A stretch of DNA of 64,000 nucleotides from a virus. Both the position numbers and the translations under genes were made by a program. A model generated the notes under the pieces. That model ran no database searches. It had not been told where the DNA came from and saw only the letters and a list, made by a program, of their open reading frames with translations. The stretch spans positions 32,001-96,000 of the IMG/VR virus record IMGVR_UViG_3300008111_000005; one strand, written 5' to 3'. Positions 3,067 to 63,908 of the stretch are shown here, one piece after another (within the stretch, counting starts at the first letter, position 1; each line of letters opens with the position of its first letter).

Positions 3067-3439
3067 ACATATTCTCCGTTACTTTTTCTTCTGTCTTTAA
3101 CACAGTTTTCTTAATGAATACTTCACGTAACGTAGATATCTTCGTTAATAAATAGGTTCGATAGGGTCTGTCACCAACGAAATTTGAGTTTTTGAAACGG
3201 TCGTAAATTACCTGAGTATCAGTTTCATCACCAATCAATTTAAATATTTGACCAAGTTTTTCTGGTGTTAGAGAACCCAGTGACAAAGCGTGCATTTTAC
3301 CTTCCCAATTGGGATTGAGTACGAGTGCATATTTCTGCTCATTATCGTAGGTAAACTGCACCACTTTGCCAGTAGTCAAATCTTTTTGAGAAACGAAAGT
3401 ACGAACACCTAATGTACCTTTATACCCTTCTATTGCCAT
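3056..3439 (-). CDS. Hypothetical protein
   Basis: 127-aa ORF, TAATG-coupled to the upstream glycosyltransferase. Confidence 0.7.
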   Translation of the reverse strand: MAIEGYKGTLGVRTFVSQKDLTTGKVVQFTYDNEQKYALVLNPNWEGKMHALSLGSLTPEKLGQIFKLIGDETDTQVIYDRFKNSNFVGDRPYRTYLLTKISTLREVFIKKTVLKTEEKVTENMYGE

Positions 3440-4746
3440 TAGTTAATCTTCTTTAATGTTGGAAGAACCAATTTAGTTTCAACGGAAAATTGTGGAACAT
3501 ATTTGTCTAACAACTCAACTGTTCTGTTAAAAATAGTTTGATACGAGAACTTCTTAACATTTTGTTTTGCTAACAACTGTGCCTTCTTTTTAAAATTACT
3601 GTAATTCTTAAATACGGCGTACATTGCGTTTGCTGATTGGTTCATATCAGGAGCGAACCACGTAGACTCCCGAATCAATACACCGTCCCACACAGAACTT
3701 TCGTGGATAGGTTTGAGTTCACCACCAATTAGTAATGAATTGTCTTTATCCAAGAAATCAAGTTGACCACTCCATCCAGATGCGATTACGGGTTTGCCAC
3801 TAATTGATGCTTCAAGTAATGGTCTACCAAACCCTTCACCCTTGGTTAAACTTACGTGTGCTTTTACCTTTGAGTGGTTATATAAAGAATTCATTTCTTT
3901 GTCTGTTAACTCACCATGCAATAAATAAATATTCGGCATGCTCTGTCCAACGTTCAAAGTAACAGATTTCTTGATTTGTTCTATTTTCTTTAATATATCT
4001 TCTCTGTCCAAGATAGAAAATCCAGCACTACTAGTTTTTAAAATAAGCGCAGGCTTTTCTTTTTCTGGAATTTGTCGGAATGTTTCAAGGAATATTTTCA
4101 CCAACAGTGCAACATTCTTACGGTCCTCTCCAAATTCACCACGGAGCCAGTGACCAACGAAAAGATAACAGAACTTCTCTGGGATGCTATCCAATGTTTC
4201 TCGTATTTTTGGCTCTAAATTAAAATCATATTCGATTTTTTTAAATATGTTATTGTCAATACAATTGTGTAATACTTCAATTGGTTTGGTGACTGCTAGT
4301 TCACCAATGATATTACCTTGTTGATTTTGCTGTGAGTACTTTGAGAAATGAAAAACATTCTTTGAGTGTTCGGAAATAGTCAGTACTAAATCCATTTTAT
4401 TACATGCTTGTATCCATTCAGCAGAAGCCACGGTGGTTTCAATGCCGGCGGTTATACCGATATTGTACTTTCCTAACGGTTCAAATTCTGTTGGGATGGT
4501 AATTGTAACATACAATGATGGTTGTGGTAATTGTCCACCACGAATGATTCTATCCAAAATCATTTTGTCCTTTGGATTAGTTTCATCCAGTGCATTCATA
4601 GGAGTATCACCCCACGGTACACTGTGCACCTTCACATCAAACTTATCCCATTCAATGATGTGACGGATAATGTCTCTACTCATATCACCATAACCAGAAC
4701 GAGTCTGGCATGGTGCTCTAACTATACATAACGGTTTGCCTGTCAT
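3439..4746 (-). CDS. GT-B (GT4-like) glycosyltransferase
   Basis: TRSGYG at N-terminus; RKNV; GEGFGRPLLEA (EGFG...E); SGWSGQLDFL. Confidence 0.85.
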   Translation of the reverse strand: MTGKPLCIVRAPCQTRSGYGDMSRDIIRHIIEWDKFDVKVHSVPWGDTPMNALDETNPKDKMILDRIIRGGQLPQPSLYVTITIPTEFEPLGKYNIGITAGIETTVASAEWIQACNKMDLVLTISEHSKNVFHFSKYSQQNQQGNIIGELAVTKPIEVLHNCIDNNIFKKIEYDFNLEPKIRETLDSIPEKFCYLFVGHWLRGEFGEDRKNVALLVKIFLETFRQIPEKEKPALILKTSSAGFSILDREDILKKIEQIKKSVTLNVGQSMPNIYLLHGELTDKEMNSLYNHSKVKAHVSLTKGEGFGRPLLEASISGKPVIASGWSGQLDFLDKDNSLLIGGELKPIHESSVWDGVLIRESTWFAPDMNQSANAMYAVFKNYSNFKKKAQLLAKQNVKKFSYQTIFNRTVELLDKYVPQFSVETKLVLPTLKKIN

Positions 4747-4747
4747 A

Positions 4748-6148
4748 TTATGCCTTCACCAAAGTAAAACGTTCCCGTGGGGTCCAATTATCCCACGCAT
4801 TTTCCATATGTTCGATAAATAATTCACACATACGTTCTGCCGTAAATTGTCCAGCTCCAAGTGCGTATTGACGACCCAACTCACCACGGCGTTTACGTTC
4901 CTCACGCGACATCTTATACACTTCCATTATCTTCTCCGCTGCTTCTTCCCACGAACAACGGTCATCAAAAATGTACGGGGTCAACGGAGAACCTTGTAAA
5001 GAACGACTTACTGGAAATAATGGGAATGCCCATTCACCGTGATTCTTGAAACGTCCATCGTGATTACTACCCCAATCATAATTGAAATCACGTTCAGGGT
5101 CAAGGTACTCACCTTCATCATTTGTGAATCCACACTGGTCTTGCAATCCACCCGTGACATTAACAATGATTGGTGTACCAGCAACTAGACTTTCACACGT
5201 ACCCAAACCAAAACCTTCATTACTAGACATATTAATGGTAACGTCTGCGATGTTATACAGAATGTTGATATGCTTCGATTCGATGCGTTCGTTTGAGAAA
5301 ATAACATACTTTTCTAATTCTGGCATTACGTCACGAATCACCACAGGTAAGTCAGTACCGTGTTCATCAACGGGTTGTGTATGTAATACAAGACGGCACT
5401 TTGAACGTTCTTCTTCTGGTAGCTTTTTCATAAACGTGTTAAATGCCAACAGAATATCCGATGTCATCTTTCTACGAATATTTCTACTATTGTAGAACAC
5501 TACATATTTAACGTCTTGACCGTTAAACAATCGTTCACGAACTTCCAAGAGTTCTTTGTCATCTTCTGGTAGTGGATGGAACTTCTTTGTATCAATTCCA
5601 TGTGGAATGTAGGATAGTGACCACGGAGCACGTGGTTCCTTTCTTGATACGTGCTTTACGATATTGTAGGTTTGTTTACTAATACATCCAATCCAATCAT
5701 CGGAACGATAATAATTTTCATTATAGAATGGATACGGAAGGTCATCCCAAATAGCGTAGAAGAACATAGGAATCTTTTGACGAATCTCATGCTCAATCTG
5801 ATATAACCAAATCCAATATCTTGGGTCTGTGAAATGGAGAATAGCATCTGGCTTTTCTAATTCTATTAACTGACGAATCAATCTACTGTCACCGTATCCA
5901 TTATAGGGAACAATCTTAACACTAGCGTCAGTCAATCCAACTTCATTATTAATTGCGTCGGACATATCAATCATTTTACCGGCCTCAGGATGAGAAACCG
6001 CTGCACCTACCTGTACCCAATTAAATCTATGCGAAGTTCCTTCAATTATTTCACGGGACATAACACCAACACCTGATGTTACTCGCATATCGTCTGAGAG
6101 GAATAAAATCTTCTTACGTTGTTCTTTTGGAATATAACCGTGTTTCAT
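4748..6148 (-). CDS. GT-B (GT4-like) glycosyltransferase
   Basis: SGVG, IPHGID, RNIRRK, SSNEGFGLGTCESL, TGGLQDQ. Confidence 0.85.
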   Translation of the reverse strand: MKHGYIPKEQRKKILFLSDDMRVTSGVGVMSREIIEGTSHRFNWVQVGAAVSHPEAGKMIDMSDAINNEVGLTDASVKIVPYNGYGDSRLIRQLIELEKPDAILHFTDPRYWIWLYQIEHEIRQKIPMFFYAIWDDLPYPFYNENYYRSDDWIGCISKQTYNIVKHVSRKEPRAPWSLSYIPHGIDTKKFHPLPEDDKELLEVRERLFNGQDVKYVVFYNSRNIRRKMTSDILLAFNTFMKKLPEEERSKCRLVLHTQPVDEHGTDLPVVIRDVMPELEKYVIFSNERIESKHINILYNIADVTINMSSNEGFGLGTCESLVAGTPIIVNVTGGLQDQCGFTNDEGEYLDPERDFNYDWGSNHDGRFKNHGEWAFPLFPVSRSLQGSPLTPYIFDDRCSWEEAAEKIMEVYKMSREERKRRGELGRQYALGAGQFTAERMCELFIEHMENAWDNWTPRERFTLVKA

Positions 6149-31653: not shown

Positions 31654-32004
31654 TTATGCGGAAAAACTACTTCCACATCCACATTTAGCAGTAGCGTTTG
31701 GATTTTTAAAGGTAAACCCAGATCCCATCATGTCTATGACATAATGAACCAATGTACCATTTAAGTAAGAGCTGGAAAAGGGGTCTATGACAATCTTCAA
31801 TCCATTTTCCTGCTCTACAACAACATCATCCTCTTCTGGATTATCAATGATATTGAAGTTATACTTAAATCCCGAACAACCACCAGGTAATACCGAAATA
31901 CGGAAATATTCACTATTTTCCGCTTCGGAAAACTTTTTCATTTCACCCAATGCCGCGTTGGTGAAGGTAATACTAAAATCAGCCGCCTGTTGAACCGAAT
32001 CCAT
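31654..32004 (-). CDS. iscA: A-type Fe-S carrier (IscA/SufA/ErpA, HesB family)
   Basis: GGCSGFKY, F.NPNA..KCGCGSSF. Confidence 0.9.
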   Translation of the reverse strand: MDSVQQAADFSITFTNAALGEMKKFSEAENSEYFRISVLPGGCSGFKYNFNIIDNPEEDDVVVEQENGLKIVIDPFSSSYLNGTLVHYVIDMMGSGFTFKNPNATAKCGCGSSFSA

Positions 32005-56247: not shown

Positions 56248-57720
56248 TTATACCTTACGTTTAAAGAGTTGCGCCATATCGTCTTGACGATGGATTAATT
56301 TACCTTCCGGTTCCCATTCTTGGTCAAGACCAGTGACCTTCATAATATTATCAATCGAACCATACTGCTGTGTCCAATCACAGGTCAGATTAATTAACAA
56401 TAGGTCTGTCTTTTCATAAAGTTGCTTACGAACTTGTTCTGCTACTATCTTTGTTGTTTCCAACAATCGACCTGGCATTAGGAGAACCAGACTGTATGCT
56501 TTTTCATTCCACGTATGTAAGTCAAATATACTACCCATTGTAAAGATTCCCCAATGGATTGTTGTTGCTGCCGACATACAACGTTGCTTATCCATTTCCA
56601 CACCATGCGGAATTAAATCTTGTCTATCTCCCACCACACGACCTAACAAGACACCATTACCACACCCAAGGTCAAGCACATTTCCACTTGGAATATACTT
56701 CATATCTCCAACTGCATCAAGAATAACTTGATGGAAATGATCCATTGCACCCTTGTTACTAAATCCGTTCTCTTCCCAAACAGAAGTATCTTCCAACGAC
56801 TTAGCAAAGGATAGAGTCTTAGTAATAGGTTTAATTTTAGTTTTCTTTTGGTTATACGGATATGTAATACCCGACATACCATCTTCTGGATATGAATGAC
56901 TGAGCTTTTGTACCGTGTATTTCCACGGTGTCATATCTGTACGTGATGATATCTTATTGATTGGGGTACGAATTTCCGCGATGCCGTGCAACGCTGACCA
57001 TTCCACGGGCCACGAAAGAATTTCATAAATCCAATCAATTTCCTTATTATATCCAAGTGTACGACCAAGTTCTGCCATTTTCATACCAAGTTCTTCTGTT
57101 GCTTTACAATCAAATGAACATGGAAGATGTGAGACTAGTCGAATACCCTGCCACCGCCAAAGAATATTGGATTCTGGTGGAGTGTCTGCATTAATATGAA
57201 TAGTGTGATCGTTGTCGGTTAACGTCAGCTTATCAGCTGCCATTGTCCACGTAGAATCTACATATCCTTGGTTTACCCAATATTTGTTGAAATGTTCAAT
57301 ACAACATGTAGGGTATCCAAGTAATCTTCCCGCTTCACGGTCACGAATAGATGATGGGGAATTCCATATACTGAACCATTCTTCAGCCAATCGTTCTGAC
57401 TTTGTAAAAACAACTCGTATATTATAATCTCCACCAGCATATGGAATTGTAGTAGAGGAATATTGCCCAGTAATTCCTTCCTTTGCCAAGGCAACAATTT
57501 TTACACCATACTTACCATACTCTTCTTGCAACGACATCAATTCCGATGGACGGATGATATCTAGTGCAGATGGTCGAATGTCATGAACCACAGACATACG
57601 TTCTATATGTCTCCATGCACTGGAAATTGCCGAAATAATCGGTTCGTATTTATTTTTGTTTTCCATACTCGTCCACTGCACACGAGTCCAATCTGGTAAA
57701 ACGTGTTTAATTCTTTGCAT
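56248..57720 (-). CDS. DUF483-like Cys-motif domain fused to a class I SAM methyltransferase
   Basis: GRLLGYPTCCIEHF and HLPCSFDC; C-terminal VLDLGCGNG and GVEMD. Confidence 0.7.
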   Translation of the reverse strand: MQRIKHVLPDWTRVQWTSMENKNKYEPIISAISSAWRHIERMSVVHDIRPSALDIIRPSELMSLQEEYGKYGVKIVALAKEGITGQYSSTTIPYAGGDYNIRVVFTKSERLAEEWFSIWNSPSSIRDREAGRLLGYPTCCIEHFNKYWVNQGYVDSTWTMAADKLTLTDNDHTIHINADTPPESNILWRWQGIRLVSHLPCSFDCKATEELGMKMAELGRTLGYNKEIDWIYEILSWPVEWSALHGIAEIRTPINKISSRTDMTPWKYTVQKLSHSYPEDGMSGITYPYNQKKTKIKPITKTLSFAKSLEDTSVWEENGFSNKGAMDHFHQVILDAVGDMKYIPSGNVLDLGCGNGVLLGRVVGDRQDLIPHGVEMDKQRCMSAATTIHWGIFTMGSIFDLHTWNEKAYSLVLLMPGRLLETTKIVAEQVRKQLYEKTDLLLINLTCDWTQQYGSIDNIMKVTGLDQEWEPEGKLIHRQDDMAQLFKRKV

Positions 57721-57738: not shown

Positions 57739-58095
57739 TTAAATCTTCAGCTTACTTTTTTCTTCTGCAATAATCTGTTGCAAAAATGCCTTCCACGAAT
57801 TTCCAGCAGTAGCCTGTGCTGTGTCGGTATCCGTACTTACTACTCCAAACTTGGCTTCATACGCTTCACGATACCGACCAGTTTCATCAACGTGGTCTGC
57901 ATGTCCGTTTGTCATATCAAACTCTTCACCAACAATTGTTTGTGATGTAGTTACTACTGGTACGGATTCGGTATCTCGAAATTCTTCTGGAATTTCCTTT
58001 AATATTCCCTTTTCCAAAAGTTCTTTTACTACTTCGAACTTTTGAGCGTAAGCTCCCGATGAGTCTACATGGTCAGCATGTAATCCTTGAATCAT
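57739..58095 (-). CDS. Small acidic protein with two HADHVD motifs (rSAM partner or substrate candidate)
   Basis: LHADHVDSSGAYAQKF and GHADHVDETGRYREAYEAKFG; GAGG RBS. Confidence 0.75.
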   Translation of the reverse strand: MIQGLHADHVDSSGAYAQKFEVVKELLEKGILKEIPEEFRDTESVPVVTTSQTIVGEEFDMTNGHADHVDETGRYREAYEAKFGVVSTDTDTAQATAGNSWKAFLQQIIAEEKSKLKI

Positions 58096-58115
58096 TTGTT
58101 TATCCTCTACTATTA

Positions 58116-59429
58116 TTAAGGTAAAAATCCATATTGTTCGTTAAACTCTTTTGAATATCGTCCTGTTTCGTCTGTATGATCGGCGTGTGGTATTTTACCA
58201 CCGTTTTTCATTACGATTTTTTGTTGTTTGATAAACTTATCAATATCAAACTGTCCTTCCAAATATCGTTTAATCTGCGCCAATCGTAACTCAACACCTT
58301 GACTGTATCCGTACATCAATGCATCTTCGTATTTTTGTCTATCTGGATGTAGTGACAATGGTGTTTCTCCTTTATGCACCATTAACTTTTCAAATATACC
58401 GAATGCCACTTTCCAATTCAAGCAGGTGTCTGTACGATTTCTCCAATCCATATCAATACCTGTACCAGGACAATGTGCCTTACAAGTTAAGAAGAAACGA
58501 CATCCTTGACATCCACCGTGTTCCTGCGGTGTGTGGTATAACGCCATTTGACGTTCAAATCCATCATATTGGGCTTTAATCCAATTAATACCTTCTTTAT
58601 TTCCACGACCACAATTTGCTTGGTTTCCTTGTGAATCAATACCTTGCACTGCGTGGGTAGTATATGGGTCACACGATAAGAAGGTACATGTTGCATTATT
58701 ATCTTGTGCCTTTAACATATCTTCTACGTCACGGAAAATATCGAATCGAAATGACCGTTTACCAGGACCATTTAATTCATTAATTTCAAACTCCCACATA
58801 TCCAGTAAGAATTCAATATTTTGTTCTGGTGTTAACGCAAGTGATTCCCCAATTGAACTGTGGTCAATTTCTAACGGATGGAGGCGAGCGCCATCAACAC
58901 CCCACGATTGAAGTTCTTTTACCCATGCCTTAAATCGGTCACGGTATTTTGGAAGTCCATTCTTTTTGTGAACAGTGATAATTAAACCAAGAGAAATTTT
59001 ATTAGCTAATAGTTTCTTAATTGCTTCAAATGATTTACGAGTAGCTTCTCTGGTTTTTTCCAATGACCCCGCCCAACGAGTATCATTCATTTCATCGGGT
59101 CCGTCGAGGGACACACCAACGTGAACGTTATACTTCTTGAACATTTCAATGTGGCGGTCGGTGATTAAAACACCATTTGTTTGGATACCATTTGCTTTAT
59201 AGCGTTCGTATCCCCACTTAAAAATAGTTTCTAAATCGTCAATATCAGTTAATAATGGTTCACCACCAAATAGAGTAAAGTTACCACCCTCTTTGGCCAA
59301 ACCTTCTAACATTTTTTCAACAGAATATGTTTTTTGACGGAAGTTACCCGCGTCACGCATAGGATGTTCGTAACAATACGGACAACTTAAATTACATACT
59401 ACTCCAACTGGTTCCAATTCAATCGTCAT
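58116..59429 (-). CDS. Radical SAM enzyme with SPASM domain (anSME/peptide-maturase type)
   Basis: CNLSCPYC, FGGEPLL, IQTNG, VSLDG; SPASM cysteines CTFLSC...C...CQGC.....C...C...C. Confidence 0.92.
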   Translation of the reverse strand: MTIELEPVGVVCNLSCPYCYEHPMRDAGNFRQKTYSVEKMLEGLAKEGGNFTLFGGEPLLTDIDDLETIFKWGYERYKANGIQTNGVLITDRHIEMFKKYNVHVGVSLDGPDEMNDTRWAGSLEKTREATRKSFEAIKKLLANKISLGLIITVHKKNGLPKYRDRFKAWVKELQSWGVDGARLHPLEIDHSSIGESLALTPEQNIEFLLDMWEFEINELNGPGKRSFRFDIFRDVEDMLKAQDNNATCTFLSCDPYTTHAVQGIDSQGNQANCGRGNKEGINWIKAQYDGFERQMALYHTPQEHGGCQGCRFFLTCKAHCPGTGIDMDWRNRTDTCLNWKVAFGIFEKLMVHKGETPLSLHPDRQKYEDALMYGYSQGVELRLAQIKRYLEGQFDIDKFIKQQKIVMKNGGKIPHADHTDETGRYSKEFNEQYGFLP

Positions 59430-59493: not shown

Positions 59494-60264
59494 TTATGGA
59501 CCAACAAATACTGGTTGGTCACTATGTGGTGTGGTATTATCTGTATGAGCAGCGGGAGTAGTGTTATCGGTGTGTGCAGCCGGTGTGGTATTATCCGTAT
59601 GAGCAGCGGGAGTAGTGTTATCGGTGTGCGCAGCCGGTGTGGTATTATCCGTATGTGCTGCTGGAGTCGTATTGTCCGTATGTGCTGCATTGATAGTAGT
59701 ATTTGTGTGTGCCGCGGCAATGTCTGTGTGGCTGGTAGCAATGTCTGTGTGACTCGCTGGTGTGGTATTGTCCGTATGTGCTGCGTTGGTAGTATTATCC
59801 GTGTGTGATGCGTTAATAGTGGTATCAGTATGTGCTGCTGGCGTGGTGTTGTCGGTGTGTGCAATGTTAGTGTGGGATGTAGCAATATCAGTATGAGATG
59901 TTGCTATATTCGTGTGGGATGTTGCGATGTCGGTATGCGCAGCATTCGTAGTGTTGTCTGTATGTGATGCGTTAATAGTGGTGTTAGCAAACGCAATATT
60001 CGTGTGTGAATTTCCAGTGTAATTGTCTGTGTGCGCAGCTGCGATATTAGTATGCGATGCAGCAACATTGGAATGTGGTGTAGTGCTGTTACTAAACGCA
60101 ATATTACTGTGTGCAATATCGGAATGTGAAGATATTGTCGCAATATTACTATGCGCAATATCTGTATGTGCTGACGACGCAGCGGCATTACCGTGTGCGA
60201 TATTTGTATGTGATCCAGCCACATTGCTATGACCGCCGGGAGAATAACTATCGGAATGTGCCAT
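59494..60264 (-). CDS. [H/F]-x-[D/N] repeat protein B (256 aa, 33 motifs)
   Basis: Almost entirely HTDNTTPAA, HTDIATS and HTNIA units; AGGA RBS. Confidence 0.88.
   Translation of the reverse strand: MAHSDSYSPGGHSNVAGSHTNIAHGNAAASSAHTDIAHSNIATISSHSDIAHSNIAFSNSTTPHSNVAASHTNIAAAHTDNYTGNSHTNIAFANTTINASHTDNTTNAAHTDIATSHTNIATSHTDIATSHTNIAHTDNTTPAAHTDTTINASHTDNTTNAAHTDNTTPASHTDIATSHTDIAAAHTNTTINAAHTDNTTPAAHTDNTTPAAHTDNTTPAAHTDNTTPAAHTDNTTPAAHTDNTTPHSDQPVFVGP
59521..59690 (-). repeat. 27-nt coding tandem repeat (HTDNTTPAA, about 6 copies)
   Basis: Units differ at synonymous positions. Confidence 0.85.
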
Positions 60265-60281
60265 AAAATATTATTCCTGAA

Positions 60282-61442
60282 TTATGAGCAGAGTTCGTTG
60301 GTACCACCACATACTTGATAATTAGAACACGCTAGGTAATAAAAACAACCCGAACATGTAACCAAATTGATACCATCACATACACTAGTACCATCGGTGC
60401 AACAATAATTATTTGTATGAGAGGCATTTGCCGTACTGTCTTGGTGGGATATTGAAGTATTAGTGAATGCAATATTATTATGCGCAATATCAGAATGTGA
60501 AGATATCGCCGCAATATTACTATGTGCTATATCCGTATGTGCGGAAGAAGCTGCAATGTTACTATGCGCAATATTAGTATGTGCCGCAGCGATATTTGAA
60601 AAGTTTGTAGTACTATCCGTATGACCTATTGATGTATTCGTATGTGCTGCGTTGGTAGTACTATCCGTGTGTGCGATATTTGTATGTGAATTTGGTATAT
60701 AACTGTTTGTATGTGCAGCAGGTATTGTACTATCGGTATGCGGAATTGTGGTATTCGTGTGTGGTATTGTGGTGTTGGTATGTGGAACTGTGGTATTGAC
60801 GAACGCAATATTTGTGTGAGCTGCTGGTGTGGTATTGTCCGTATGTGCTGCATTGATAGTAGTATTTGTATGTGCTGCGTTGATAGTAGTATCTGTATGT
60901 GCTGCTGGTATCGTAGTATTTGTGTGAGGAATAGTGGTATTTGTGTGTGGAGTTGTATTATCTGTATGTGATGATGGTGTGGTGTTATCTGTATGTGCAG
61001 CAATCGTGGTATTGTCTGTGTGTGCAGCAATTGTTGTATTATCGGTGTGTGCAGCAATCGTGGTATTATCGGTGTGTGCTGCGTTGATAGTAATATCAGT
61101 ATGTGCTGCTGGAGTGGTGTTATCGGTGTGTGCCGCAGTTACGTCGGTGTGACCACGAATTTCACTACCTGTACCAGAAATCCAATGCCAAAAAGTACTT
61201 TCAACCCACACAGAACCAGCCTTTGCACCTGCCGCAGCACCTAAGTTTGTATATGCAATTGTACGGTCAACCCCTGTAGCGGAGATATAATGGAAATCAT
61301 TTCCATCTACCCACACCGATCCAGGTTTAGCTCCCGCTGGTGATGTACCGGCGGTACCAGTATAATAATATTCATTTCCCGAGCCGTCTATGAAACGAAA
61401 CGTTTCACCATCAACCCAGATACTACCAGGTGCCTTTGGCAT
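60282..61442 (-). CDS. [H/F]-x-[D/N] repeat protein A (386 aa, 33 motifs) with a 3x GSxWV N-domain and an 8-Cys C-terminal tip
   Basis: PGSIWVDG/PGSVWVDG/AGSVWVES repeats, HTD array, YCCTDGTSVC...ELCS. Confidence 0.88.
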   Translation of the reverse strand: MPKAPGSIWVDGETFRFIDGSGNEYYYTGTAGTSPAGAKPGSVWVDGNDFHYISATGVDRTIAYTNLGAAAGAKAGSVWVESTFWHWISGTGSEIRGHTDVTAAHTDNTTPAAHTDITINAAHTDNTTIAAHTDNTTIAAHTDNTTIAAHTDNTTPSSHTDNTTPHTNTTIPHTNTTIPAAHTDTTINAAHTNTTINAAHTDNTTPAAHTNIAFVNTTVPHTNTTIPHTNTTIPHTDSTIPAAHTNSYIPNSHTNIAHTDSTTNAAHTNTSIGHTDSTTNFSNIAAAHTNIAHSNIAASSAHTDIAHSNIAAISSHSDIAHNNIAFTNTSISHQDSTANASHTNNYCCTDGTSVCDGINLVTCSGCFYYLACSNYQVCGGTNELCS

Positions 61443-61485: not shown

Positions 61486-62349
61486 TTATACACAAGTAAA
61501 TGTTCCTAAACAACCAACTGGCCGTGCTGCACATACTACTGCGTAGACACTACTATTGGGATTTGTATAAAAATTTGACCCAGATGATGGACTACCATCG
61601 GCACAAGTTACATATCCTGCGGGACACGATGCATCCACACCACGAGTTCCTTGTGGACCTGTTGGTCCTTGTACACCAGTAATTCCCTGTACTCCAGCCG
61701 ACCCCGTGGATGCCGCTGGTGCAGAAATACCTGTAACTCCTACAACACCCGTTGCTCCTTGTGGTCCCGATGGTCCTGTTGCACCCGCTGTGGGTAATCC
61801 TACAACACCACCTACACCCGTAGCACCCACCACGTTTGTTAATCCCGATGGTCCTGTTTGTCCAATAATTCCTGTTATACCAAGAATTCCTTGAATACCT
61901 GTTGCACCTGTTGGTCCTGTTGCACCCGTTGCGCCTGTTGACCCAGACACTAGTGAACCGATACCTGTAGCACCCGTTGGTCCTGTAATACCAATAGACC
62001 CCGATGCTCCTGTTGGCCCTGTTGGTCCCGTAGACCCAGTAACACCAGTTGGTCCAATAACTCCTGTTGGCCCTGTTGGTCCTAGTGGTCCTGTTGGTCC
62101 AGTTGGACCTGAGGTAGTTAATCCCGTTACCCCAGATACTCCTGTTGGTCCAGTAGACCCAGACCCAGCTATACCTACCAAACCAATTGGACCTGTTGGA
62201 CCTCTATCACCTATAACTCCTGTTGCACCAGGTCCATATGATGCGGTTAATACATTTACTCCCGCAGCGTATGTTGCAGTAAATGCTAAATTACTATATA
62301 ATGCAACGCTTGCAGTAGTTGGTGTACCAAGTGGAAAAAATGTGGTCAT
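61486..62349 (-). CDS. Collagen-like fibre protein with Cys-rich C-terminus
   Basis: G-x-T triplets (GPT/GAT/GIT) with interruptions; 5 Cys in the last about 46 aa. Confidence 0.88.
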
Positions 62350-63908
62350 AGGAATGCGTTACTGTGAGCGGCAGCGACATTTGAATGTGCTGCGGTGATA
62401 TTGGAGAAATTGGTGGTATTGTCTGTATGTGCGGCGGTAATATCCGTGTGTGCTGCGGTTATATCCGTGTGTGCTGCTGCAATGTTACTATGTGCAATAT
62501 TTGTGTGTGCTGCTGCAACATTTGAAAATGCGATGTTACTGTGTGCGATATCAGTATGTGATGCGTTGGTAGTATTATCAGAATGTGATCCTGGTGTAGT
62601 ACTATCAGTAAATGGAATATCGGTATGTGACGACGGTGTAGTACTATTTACGAATGCCGCATCGGTATGCACACCTATTATATCACTGTGATCATTAAAT
62701 GGACTACATGGTGTACCAGATGGACAAGAAGAATATCCGAAATAAAATAAACATCCAGGCCCCGCATCACCATCTAAACAATAAACACCAGTCGCTGCAT
62801 CATCACCATGCCCGATTGTACTGTCCGAATGTGGTTGATCAGTATGTGAGGCCGGCGTGGTACTAGATATTGCCGCAATATTAGTATGTTCTGTGTTAAT
62901 AGTAGTATTTGTGTGTGCTGCGTTAATAGTACTGGAACTTCCCGCAATATTTCCGTGTGAAATATTTGAATGTGGTGTGGTACTAGTAATTCCAGCAATA
63001 TTGGTATGTGCTGTATAATTGTTTGTGTGTGGTATTGTGATATTTGTAAAGTTTGTAGTACTGTCGGTGTGTGCTGCAGTAATATTAGAATGTGGTGTAG
63101 TACTATCACTATGTGGGACCGTAATATCGGAATGTGTTTGATTACATGATCCCGTGACGAAAAATGCAGCTCTTCCCGCAGCACCTTGTGGTCCTGTTGG
63201 ACCGACTGGCCCAGAAGGACCGGTAATACCTGTAACACCAGCGGAACCGAAGGTATTAGGACCACTAATACCCTGTGAACCTGCTGCACCCGTTGCTCCT
63301 GTTGGTCCTACTGGTCCTGTTGCTCCAGCACTACCAGATGGACCGATTGGCCCCGTAGAACCAACTGGCCCCACACCTGTTGGTCCTGTACTACCTTGTG
63401 GTCCTGTTGGACCTGTTGAACCTGTTGGTCCAGTTGCTCCAGCAACACCCGCTACACCACCAAATATACCAACACTACCTGTTGGACCTGTTGCACCAAT
63501 TGCCCCTGTTGGACCTGTTATACCTCGACTACCTGTTGGTCCCGTAACACCGATTACACCAGTGCTACCAGTTGGACCTGTTGGACCCGTGGGGCCTGTA
63601 GATCCTGTGATGCCACTTGGTCCAGTTGGACCTGTTGACCCAGATGTTTGTGGTCCAGTTGATCCTGTGGGTCCAGTTATACCGATAGAGCCGGACACGC
63701 CAGTTGGACCTGTTGGACCTGTTGGCCCCGTTGCTCCTGTTGGTCCTAGTGGTCCTGATGGTCCTGTAAATCCACCTATAGCGAACGATGCAGTAGCATA
63801 TCCAGACCCACTATTTACCGCAACTGACGCTGTAAACGTCAGTACACTTGCAGATAATGCGAATGAACTAGTAGTTGGTGTTCCGTATGGGAAAAACTTA
63901 AACGTCAT
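62346..63908 (-). CDS. Collagen-like fibre protein with C-terminal H-x-[D/N] hairpin and Cys loop
   Basis: About 200 aa of G-x-T, then 13 His motifs, a 4-Cys loop and 13 His motifs. Confidence 0.88.

Follow-up and report, generated by a model that had tools for sequence, protein, structure and literature searches.

Mirrored motif spacing in two adjacent phage genes points to a fibre shaft split into two antiparallel arms

Genes at the locus

The stretch of DNA analysed here (the window; 64,000 nucleotides (nt), positions 32,001 to 96,000 of IMG/VR record IMGVR_UViG_3300008111_000005) comes from a large tailed phage, and every gene in it lies on the minus strand. Two adjacent genes, A and B, are the subject of this study. 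Their proteins carry long arrays of a three-residue motif, His or Phe followed by any residue and then Asp or Asn ([H/F]x[D/N]). The features of the pair, with protein lengths in amino acids (aa), are the following.

60282-61442, minus strand: gene A, 386 aa, with putative attachment domain, outgoing arm and Cys-rich tip knob (from the open reading frame (ORF), motifs and relatives)
61158-61442, minus strand: A residues 1-95, N-terminal all-beta domain with three 'GSxWV..G..F.[FY]ID..G' repeats (from alignments)
60411-61151, minus strand: A residues 98-344, outgoing arm, 33 [H/F]x[D/N] motifs in units of 5, 7 or 9 residues
60285-60410, minus strand: A residues 345-386, Cys-rich knob (8 Cys), distal tip
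60265-60281, minus strand: A/B intergenic spacer, 17 nt, with an AGGA ribosome-binding-like site
59494-60264, minus strand: gene B, 256 aa, return arm only
59518-60258, minus strand: B residues 3-249, returning arm, 33 motifs, mirroring the A arm
59497-59526, minus strand: B residues 247-256, 'HSDQPVFVGP', base tail

Gene A stops with TAA, the ATG of B follows after the 17-nt spacer in a frame different from that of A, and the two are truly separate genes. In alignments, the N-terminal triple-repeat domain of A is conserved family-wide. The base tail of B is invariant across all return arms and fused relatives compared; the Thermus phage version ends 'HADQPVRG'.

Mirrored spacing of the two arms

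Motifs were located with a script ([H/F/Y/W]-x-[D/N]), and spacings were taken between successive motifs. The script reproduced the hand count of an earlier note on this DNA, namely 33 motifs in each protein, with 30 His and 3 Phe in A and 31 His and 2 Phe in B. They occupy residues 98-342 of A and residues 3-247 of B, a span of 244 residues in both. The two spacing lists given in that note were identical to the script output. From N to C terminus, the spacings of A are 7,9,9,9,9,9,9,7,7,9,9,9,9,5,7,7,7,9,9,5,9,7,7,7,5,9,5,9,5,5,7,9. When B is read from C to N terminus, its first 25 spacings equal those of A, the next five are reordered with an equal sum, and the last two match, again as first counted by hand.

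Motif heights were measured from the first motif of A toward its C-terminus, and from the last motif of B toward its N-terminus. In this antiparallel arrangement, with zero offset, 31 of the 33 motif heights coincide, while the best parallel superposition across all offsets brings 13 motifs together. The permutation test suggested in the earlier note gave, for 100,000 shuffles of the B spacings, a mean of 6.1 coincident heights (standard deviation 2.6) and a maximum of 23, against the 31 observed. The mirror in the window is far beyond chance. A DNA inverted repeat was ruled out as its cause, in line with the same note: no meaningful one exists at A/B (at most 22 nt at 73%). The units read alike from N to C in both proteins (e.g. 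HTDNTTPAA), and only the order of unit lengths is mirrored.

Residues 272-333 of A and 1-64 of B form a colinear segment, about 55% identical overall and much more so in a core of about 46 aa. This segment is a direct duplication across the tip, at the A/B junction. Its own spacing (5,9,5,9,5) is palindromic, which explains why five spacings are reordered and only two motifs per arm are off register.

Covariation across related loci

Scanning viral contigs with the radical S-adenosylmethionine (radical SAM) protein encoded downstream of B gave 22 loci. A-like and B-like genes lie directly upstream of the enzyme gene in L005, L006, L007, L009 and L013, and also in the near-identical copy L004. 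When A was compared with the reversed B of its own locus, the coincident heights in five further loci were 47/47, 44/44, 38/40, 44/44 and 11/13. When A and B were taken from different loci, only 3-16 heights matched. The spacing strings differ by 8-21 edits between loci, compared with 0-2 within a locus.

In L009, one and the same block of 40 residues is duplicated in tandem in both arms, at heights 101-141 and 141-181. Across the two genes, the tandem copies are 89% and 93% identical. Repeat gains and losses are thus compensated in orthologous pairs, which the earlier note had proposed as a check: each locus keeps its own mirror and the L009 duplication is found in both arms, with L008, discussed below, as the exception. 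Its central proposal, selection for antiparallel in-register pairing, gains support from this covariation, from the internal mirror of fused relatives and from complementarity of residues at the same level. Taken from these sequence comparisons, antiparallel in-register pairing of A and B is strongly supported.

Fused hairpins and other ways of splitting

Related arrays also occur within single chains. Gp13 of the Thermus phage Cumys (343 aa) has an N-terminal triple 'GSxW' domain, followed by an HxD array and the 'HADQPVRG' end. Its gene is located after baseplate and tail-collar-fibre genes, and its array is palindromic in cumulative spacing when 3+3 is taken as 6. The internal mirror is complete in the single-chain proteins of L010 (869 aa, 51/51) and L011 (288 aa, 12/12). 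A HMMER search of 1.84 billion representatives yielded 297 relatives, and most of the complete relatives inspected are single chains with the N-terminal domain, the array and a 'QP..(V/I)G' tail. Some relatives have an extra 100-aa N-terminal extension or a LamG-like insert. Unit lengths are 5/7/9 in the clade of the window, 6/7/9 in the L010/L011 clade and 3-6 in Thermus-type relatives.

For distant homologues spaced at 4/5 residues, a rigid mirror test is uninformative, and a mirror score based on alignment was used instead. By this score, 13 of 21 distant fused homologues exceed the shuffles, with the observed value reached by no more than 17 of 500, and the mirror outscores the parallel arrangement in nearly all of the 21. 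Because fused relatives have the same internal mirror, the window pair can be read as a hairpin shaft split at its tip. The single out-and-back chain is probably the ancestral and common state, which would have been cut at the tip in the clade of the window.

The position of the Cys-rich knob varies. It forms the C-terminus of A in the window and in L007, is absent in L005, L006 and L009, stands at the N-terminus of the return-arm protein in L013, and in some relatives is located within the hairpin loop. A recurring 'GGNPP(F/T)' or 'GGPSA'-like motif terminates broken chains and is likewise the end of A in L005, L006 and L009. In L013 (1-1936), a fused hairpin fibre gene is directly followed by a split pair. 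A 130-aa ORF lies between the A-like and B-like genes of L007 (6666-7058), in this relative only.

Of the two collagen-like fibre genes upstream of A, one (C) carries the same kind of array, as do collagen-like fibres of related loci.

62346-63908, minus strand: gene C, 520 aa, collagen-like fibre with a hairpin array within one chain (PF01391 and tail-fibre PHROGs)
62802-63134, minus strand: C out arm, residues 259-369, followed by a Cys-rich loop
62358-62699, minus strand: C return arm, residues 404-517
61486-62349, minus strand: second collagen-like fibre gene, upstream of A
L005 1968-4709 and L006 2243-4831: three-gene collagen fibre, consisting of collagen with a short out arm, a second out arm with Cys knob, and a long return arm

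Within C, all 14 outgoing motif heights are mirrored (14/14). The collagen fibre is found in two pieces in L008 and L009, and in three pieces in L005 and L006. Where there are three pieces, two outgoing polypeptides in succession are matched by a single return arm (36/37 and 35/36 motifs). The two outgoing pieces of the L005/L006 fibres overlap by about 25-40 residues in height.

Complementarity at the same level

Residues at equal height were counted over six pairs, and the counts were pooled. For the aromatic position, this gave 97 H/H, 64 F/H, 53 H/F and a single F/F, where 16 F/F would be expected under independence. In paralogous and fused arrays, Phe opposite Phe is likewise avoided (1 in about 42). 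Phe is followed by Asn (FxN) in 121 cases and by Asp (FxD) in one. Whole motifs pair as FxN with HxN (103), HxD with HxD (51), HxN with HxD (36), FxN with HxD (14) and HxN with HxN (10). Asp occurs essentially only where both arms provide His. The two motifs at one level, here called a rung, behave as a cooperative four-residue unit. Such a pattern would be expected of a charge-balanced metal site or a His/Asp network that is swapped for a neutral Phe/His/Asn/Asn plug. The spacing alone does not tell at which constant offset the arms are in register, with His facing either His or Asp, and unit periodicity confounds covariation.

The linkers are complementary as well. Among the seven-residue unit pairs, 81 of 82 are of unlike type, with 'I/V-A-A-x' ('IAAA') opposite 'N-T-T-P' ('TTP'). 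All five-residue units are of the 'I/V-A-A-x' type, and all nine-residue units of the 'N-T-T-P' type.

The radical SAM/DUF483 module and the genomic setting

Three genes follow B in the direction of transcription.

58116-59429, minus strand: radical SAM enzyme, downstream of B (PF04055)
57739-58095, minus strand: 118-aa ORF, downstream of the radical SAM gene (ORF list)
56248-57720, minus strand: DUF483-like (GYPxCC) and class I methyltransferase protein, the third gene conserved in the module

In every locus whose flanks are long enough, fibre, radical SAM and DUF483-like genes occur together. The module is kept in clades whose enzymes are only 42-56% identical, and its gene order is shuffled. 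The distant relative L023 (7941-13542) has two radical SAM genes flanking the DUF483-like gene and then a fibre gene, an order unlike that of the window.

The nearest NCBIfam models of the enzyme are sulfatase and cyclophane-type peptide maturases, all below cutoff. The best matches include YhhB, AmcB, GrrM/OscB, FxsB and XyeB, with 39-68 bits against cutoffs of 310-450, and cover the N-terminal half only. The C-terminal half is SPASM-like by its resemblance to SPASM maturases; no SPASM domain was called. The enzyme ends in 'HADHTD...GRY', and the 118-aa ORF repeats an 'HADH[TV]D' tail piece twice (window 57739-58191). These 'HADHTD' tails are themselves HxD triplets, and the L013 enzyme has the same tail.

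An 'rSAM module' has been described in Thermus phages and prophages, with a suggested role in DNA modification (Viruses 2024; PMC11437467). Triceptide synthases link His-C2 to X3-C-beta in H-x-X3 motifs and also tolerate Phe at the His position (PMC11499958). By analogy with this chemistry, stapling of each [H/F]x[D/N] motif is a reasonable guess, and it would complement the pairing model rather than compete with it.

The window also encodes an SNF2 helicase, a family B DNA polymerase, a ribonucleotide reductase, a DnaB-like helicase and a T4-type baseplate hub (PF12322, phrog_150). According to Pfam and PHROGs matches, the hub gene lies near the A, B and C fibre genes. Two adjacent glycosyltransferase-like genes (phrog_2170) are found at window positions 3439-6148.

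Structure prediction and family searches

AlphaFold2 (AF2) monomer models of the 288-aa fused relative and of a 170-aa mini relative gave the N-terminal domain a predicted local distance difference test (pLDDT) score of about 90. In a fold search, this domain had only weak beta-prism II lectin-like matches (monocot lectin or LlpA bacteriocin, Z 4.7), and a search of a viral structure library returned one homologue only. A complex of A 1-202 and B 143-256, three copies of each, with four Zn was predicted with interface scores (ipSAE) of 0.14 and 0.12 against a mark of 0.32, without controls, and speaks neither for nor against binding.

With A, B and fused relatives as queries, the array had no match in Pfam, PHROGs, NCBIfam or PDB sequences, and B and the fused relatives hit no Pfam family at E up to 10. 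A blastn comparison of the locus with phage records gave no match, and a word-index protein search gave 12 matches only, with low complexity dominating. In the literature searched, neither this fibre family nor mirrored spacing is described.

Interpretation and alternatives

We consider it likely, judging from sequence, that a large tailed phage here builds an out-and-back fibre shaft from two halves, A and B, whose arms are antiparallel and in register. In most relatives, one chain would begin with an N-terminal attachment domain, run outward through [His/Phe]-x-[Asp/Asn] motifs, turn, and come back to the base tail 'H.DQPV.VG'. In the phage of the window, this chain would be broken at the tip, so that A would provide the attachment domain, the outgoing arm and the knob, and B would supply the return arm in trans. 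Each motif of A would lie level with a motif of B as a rung, with equal numbers of residues between rungs. The mirrored spacing would be kept because a unit gained or lost in one arm must be matched in the other. Four residues would cooperate in each rung, as HxD with HxD or as FxN with HxN, and the linkers between rungs would pack against one another. The shaft is probably trimeric, with three A and three B chains forming six strands, since the array is fused to a collagen triple helix in C. The radical SAM enzyme and the DUF483/methyltransferase protein probably mature the rungs, by three-residue cyclophane-type cross-links or by a modification related to a metal site. Physical pairing, trimer stoichiometry, absolute register offset and rung chemistry are what we infer here.

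Several results weigh against the split-shaft interpretation. In the window pair, each arm has two motifs close to the tip that do not fall into register. Unit-length parity is not fixed across clades, so a regular beta-ladder is not implied. The pooled same-level counts come from related loci and are not independent events. In 8 of the 21 distant homologues (4/5-residue spacing), the mirror is indistinguishable from shuffles. AF2 leaves the arrays unstructured, with pLDDT of about 44 in the 288-aa relative and 45-67 in the 170-aa relative, and gives no hairpin model. Finally, the A gene of L008 is without one 120-nt tandem copy (40 aa, in-frame), and its partner B is unshortened. L008 (5936-7009) and L009 (5816-7009) are 100% identical over the compared flanks, and the deletion in A is the sole difference. 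It may be a mismatch that is tolerated, a defect of very recent origin or a tandem repeat collapsed in assembly.

Among the alternatives, the motifs could mainly serve the radical SAM enzyme as an array of substrate sites, giving a poly-cyclophane akin to peptides made on the ribosome and modified after translation (RiPPs), with the mirror arising from unit stacking or from the way the two proteins are read by the enzyme module rather than from A-B strand pairing. An aromatic-x-Asp/Asn motif fits the triceptide motif, such enzymes tolerate the change from His to Phe, the fibre is always found together with the radical SAM and DUF483 genes, and the nearest families of the enzyme include cyclophane synthases. 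However, an enzyme acting on a three-residue motif gives no reason for mirrored order, equal spans, compensated duplications or linker complementarity. We regard this explanation as improbable; the substrate-array idea fits the pairing model as a maturation step, not as its replacement.

It is still less probable that A and B form separate homotrimeric fibres, with the mirror as a by-product of mutation or of shared ancestry, such as an old rearrangement. B does have its own start codon and ribosome-binding-like site, and repeat arrays change fast through slippage. Yet slippage yields direct, not mirrored, order, and both the lack of a DNA inverted repeat and the shared strand and N-to-C unit orientation of the two genes speak against this reading. 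Despite 8-21 unit changes, each lineage has restored the mirror. Moreover, B is without an attachment domain and closes with the conserved tail that forms the C-terminus in fused relatives.

That a single gene was artificially divided by faulty sequencing or assembly, or that recoding joins A and B into one hairpin chain, is hardly credible even though fused forms are the commonest architecture in the family, because the break (stop, spacer, new ATG) occurs in six independent contigs from different metagenomes with varied spacers and frames, L007 has its extra ORF between the genes, A closes with either a Cys-rich domain that is complete or a 'GGNPP'-type end that is conserved, and the collagen paralogues are split too.

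Within the split-shaft interpretation, a more far-reaching proposal is tentative, and we would put it at below an even chance. It holds that A and B build a new kind of virion fibre, a heteromeric zipper in which the return strand, supplied in trans, would act as a splint joining two polypeptides. The register would be set by the mirrored spacing code, and the rungs (2His/2Asp or Phe/His/2Asn) would be covalently stapled or metal-loaded by the phage radical SAM and DUF483/methyltransferase proteins.

The locus offers unusually clean evidence, drawn from sequence only, for the pairing of two polypeptides. Repeat-length covariation and residue complementarity between two genes are kept through many repeat gains and losses. 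The fibre module is undescribed, absent from Pfam and PHROGs, and widespread in uncultured phages, with about 300 representative clusters at 50% identity. What was published as the 'rSAM module' of Thermus phages may be re-read as a system for fibre maturation, not DNA modification. Should enzymes indeed cross-link the rungs or load them with metal, RiPP-type radical chemistry would for the first time be seen at large scale, at dozens of sites, on a structural protein of a virion. Anyone designing register-encoded fibres of a given length could draw on the split and fused variants as a natural toolkit.

Comparison with known systems

The T4 gp37 needle appears to be the closest working analogy. 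In the 2010 crystal structure by Bartual et al. of gp37, which forms the tip of the long tail fibre, each chain is said to run out to the tip and back, giving six antiparallel strands. The gp37 needle is a trimer held by seven Fe ions on HxH motifs, and it is essential for folding (PMC6957217, PMC11705849). Both systems are phage fibres with recurring three-residue His motifs along the shaft, those of gp37 facing the axis. Out-and-back antiparallel arms would be a second shared trait, suggested here by the mirrored spacing. We found no sequence relation to gp37: no gp37 Pfam model matched A, and there was no relevant PDB sequence match. A language-model feature lead to a PF20744-bearing gp37-trimer cluster scored 0.83, which is at chance level. 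In contrast to the HxH motifs and seven rungs of gp37, the motifs here are HxD, HxN and FxN, with 33-51 rungs per arm. The shaft is split into two or three polypeptides, and a dedicated radical SAM/DUF483 module accompanies it.

Triceptides are peptides with three-residue cyclophanes, formed by radical SAM/SPASM synthases such as HaaB, YhhB and HtkB (PMC11499958). Their systems share repeated aromatic-X-X3 motifs adjoining a radical SAM enzyme that resembles SPASM maturases. The pair described here has 33 + 33 [H/F]x[D/N] motifs, in which Phe replaces His in register. X3 as Asp or Asn with His is absent among the examples in PMC11499958. Triceptide precursors are short and leader-bearing, whereas the candidate substrates here are structural fibre proteins of 256-869 aa with dozens of motifs, and the enzyme is below the cutoff of every named family. 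Another repeat system with maturases is the His-Xaa-Ser system, HxsA-D in NCBIfam, with the repeat protein HxsA and the maturases HxsB/C. A and B match no NCBIfam model, and no Hxs model is among the 25 best of 58 matches of the enzyme.

The 'rSAM module' of Cumys and phiMa (PMC11437467) consists of the same three genes, and Cumys gp13 is a fused homologue of A plus B. The third protein was left uncharacterised there, and the HxD array, the hairpin mirror and a fibre role were not noted. Collagen-like phage tail fibres (PF01391; PHROG 5073/6320) are the last point of comparison. Fibres of this kind are neighbours of A and B, and C has a hairpin array in its distal part. Unlike them, A and B are without a collagen repeat, and the HxD/N hairpin is a separate module.

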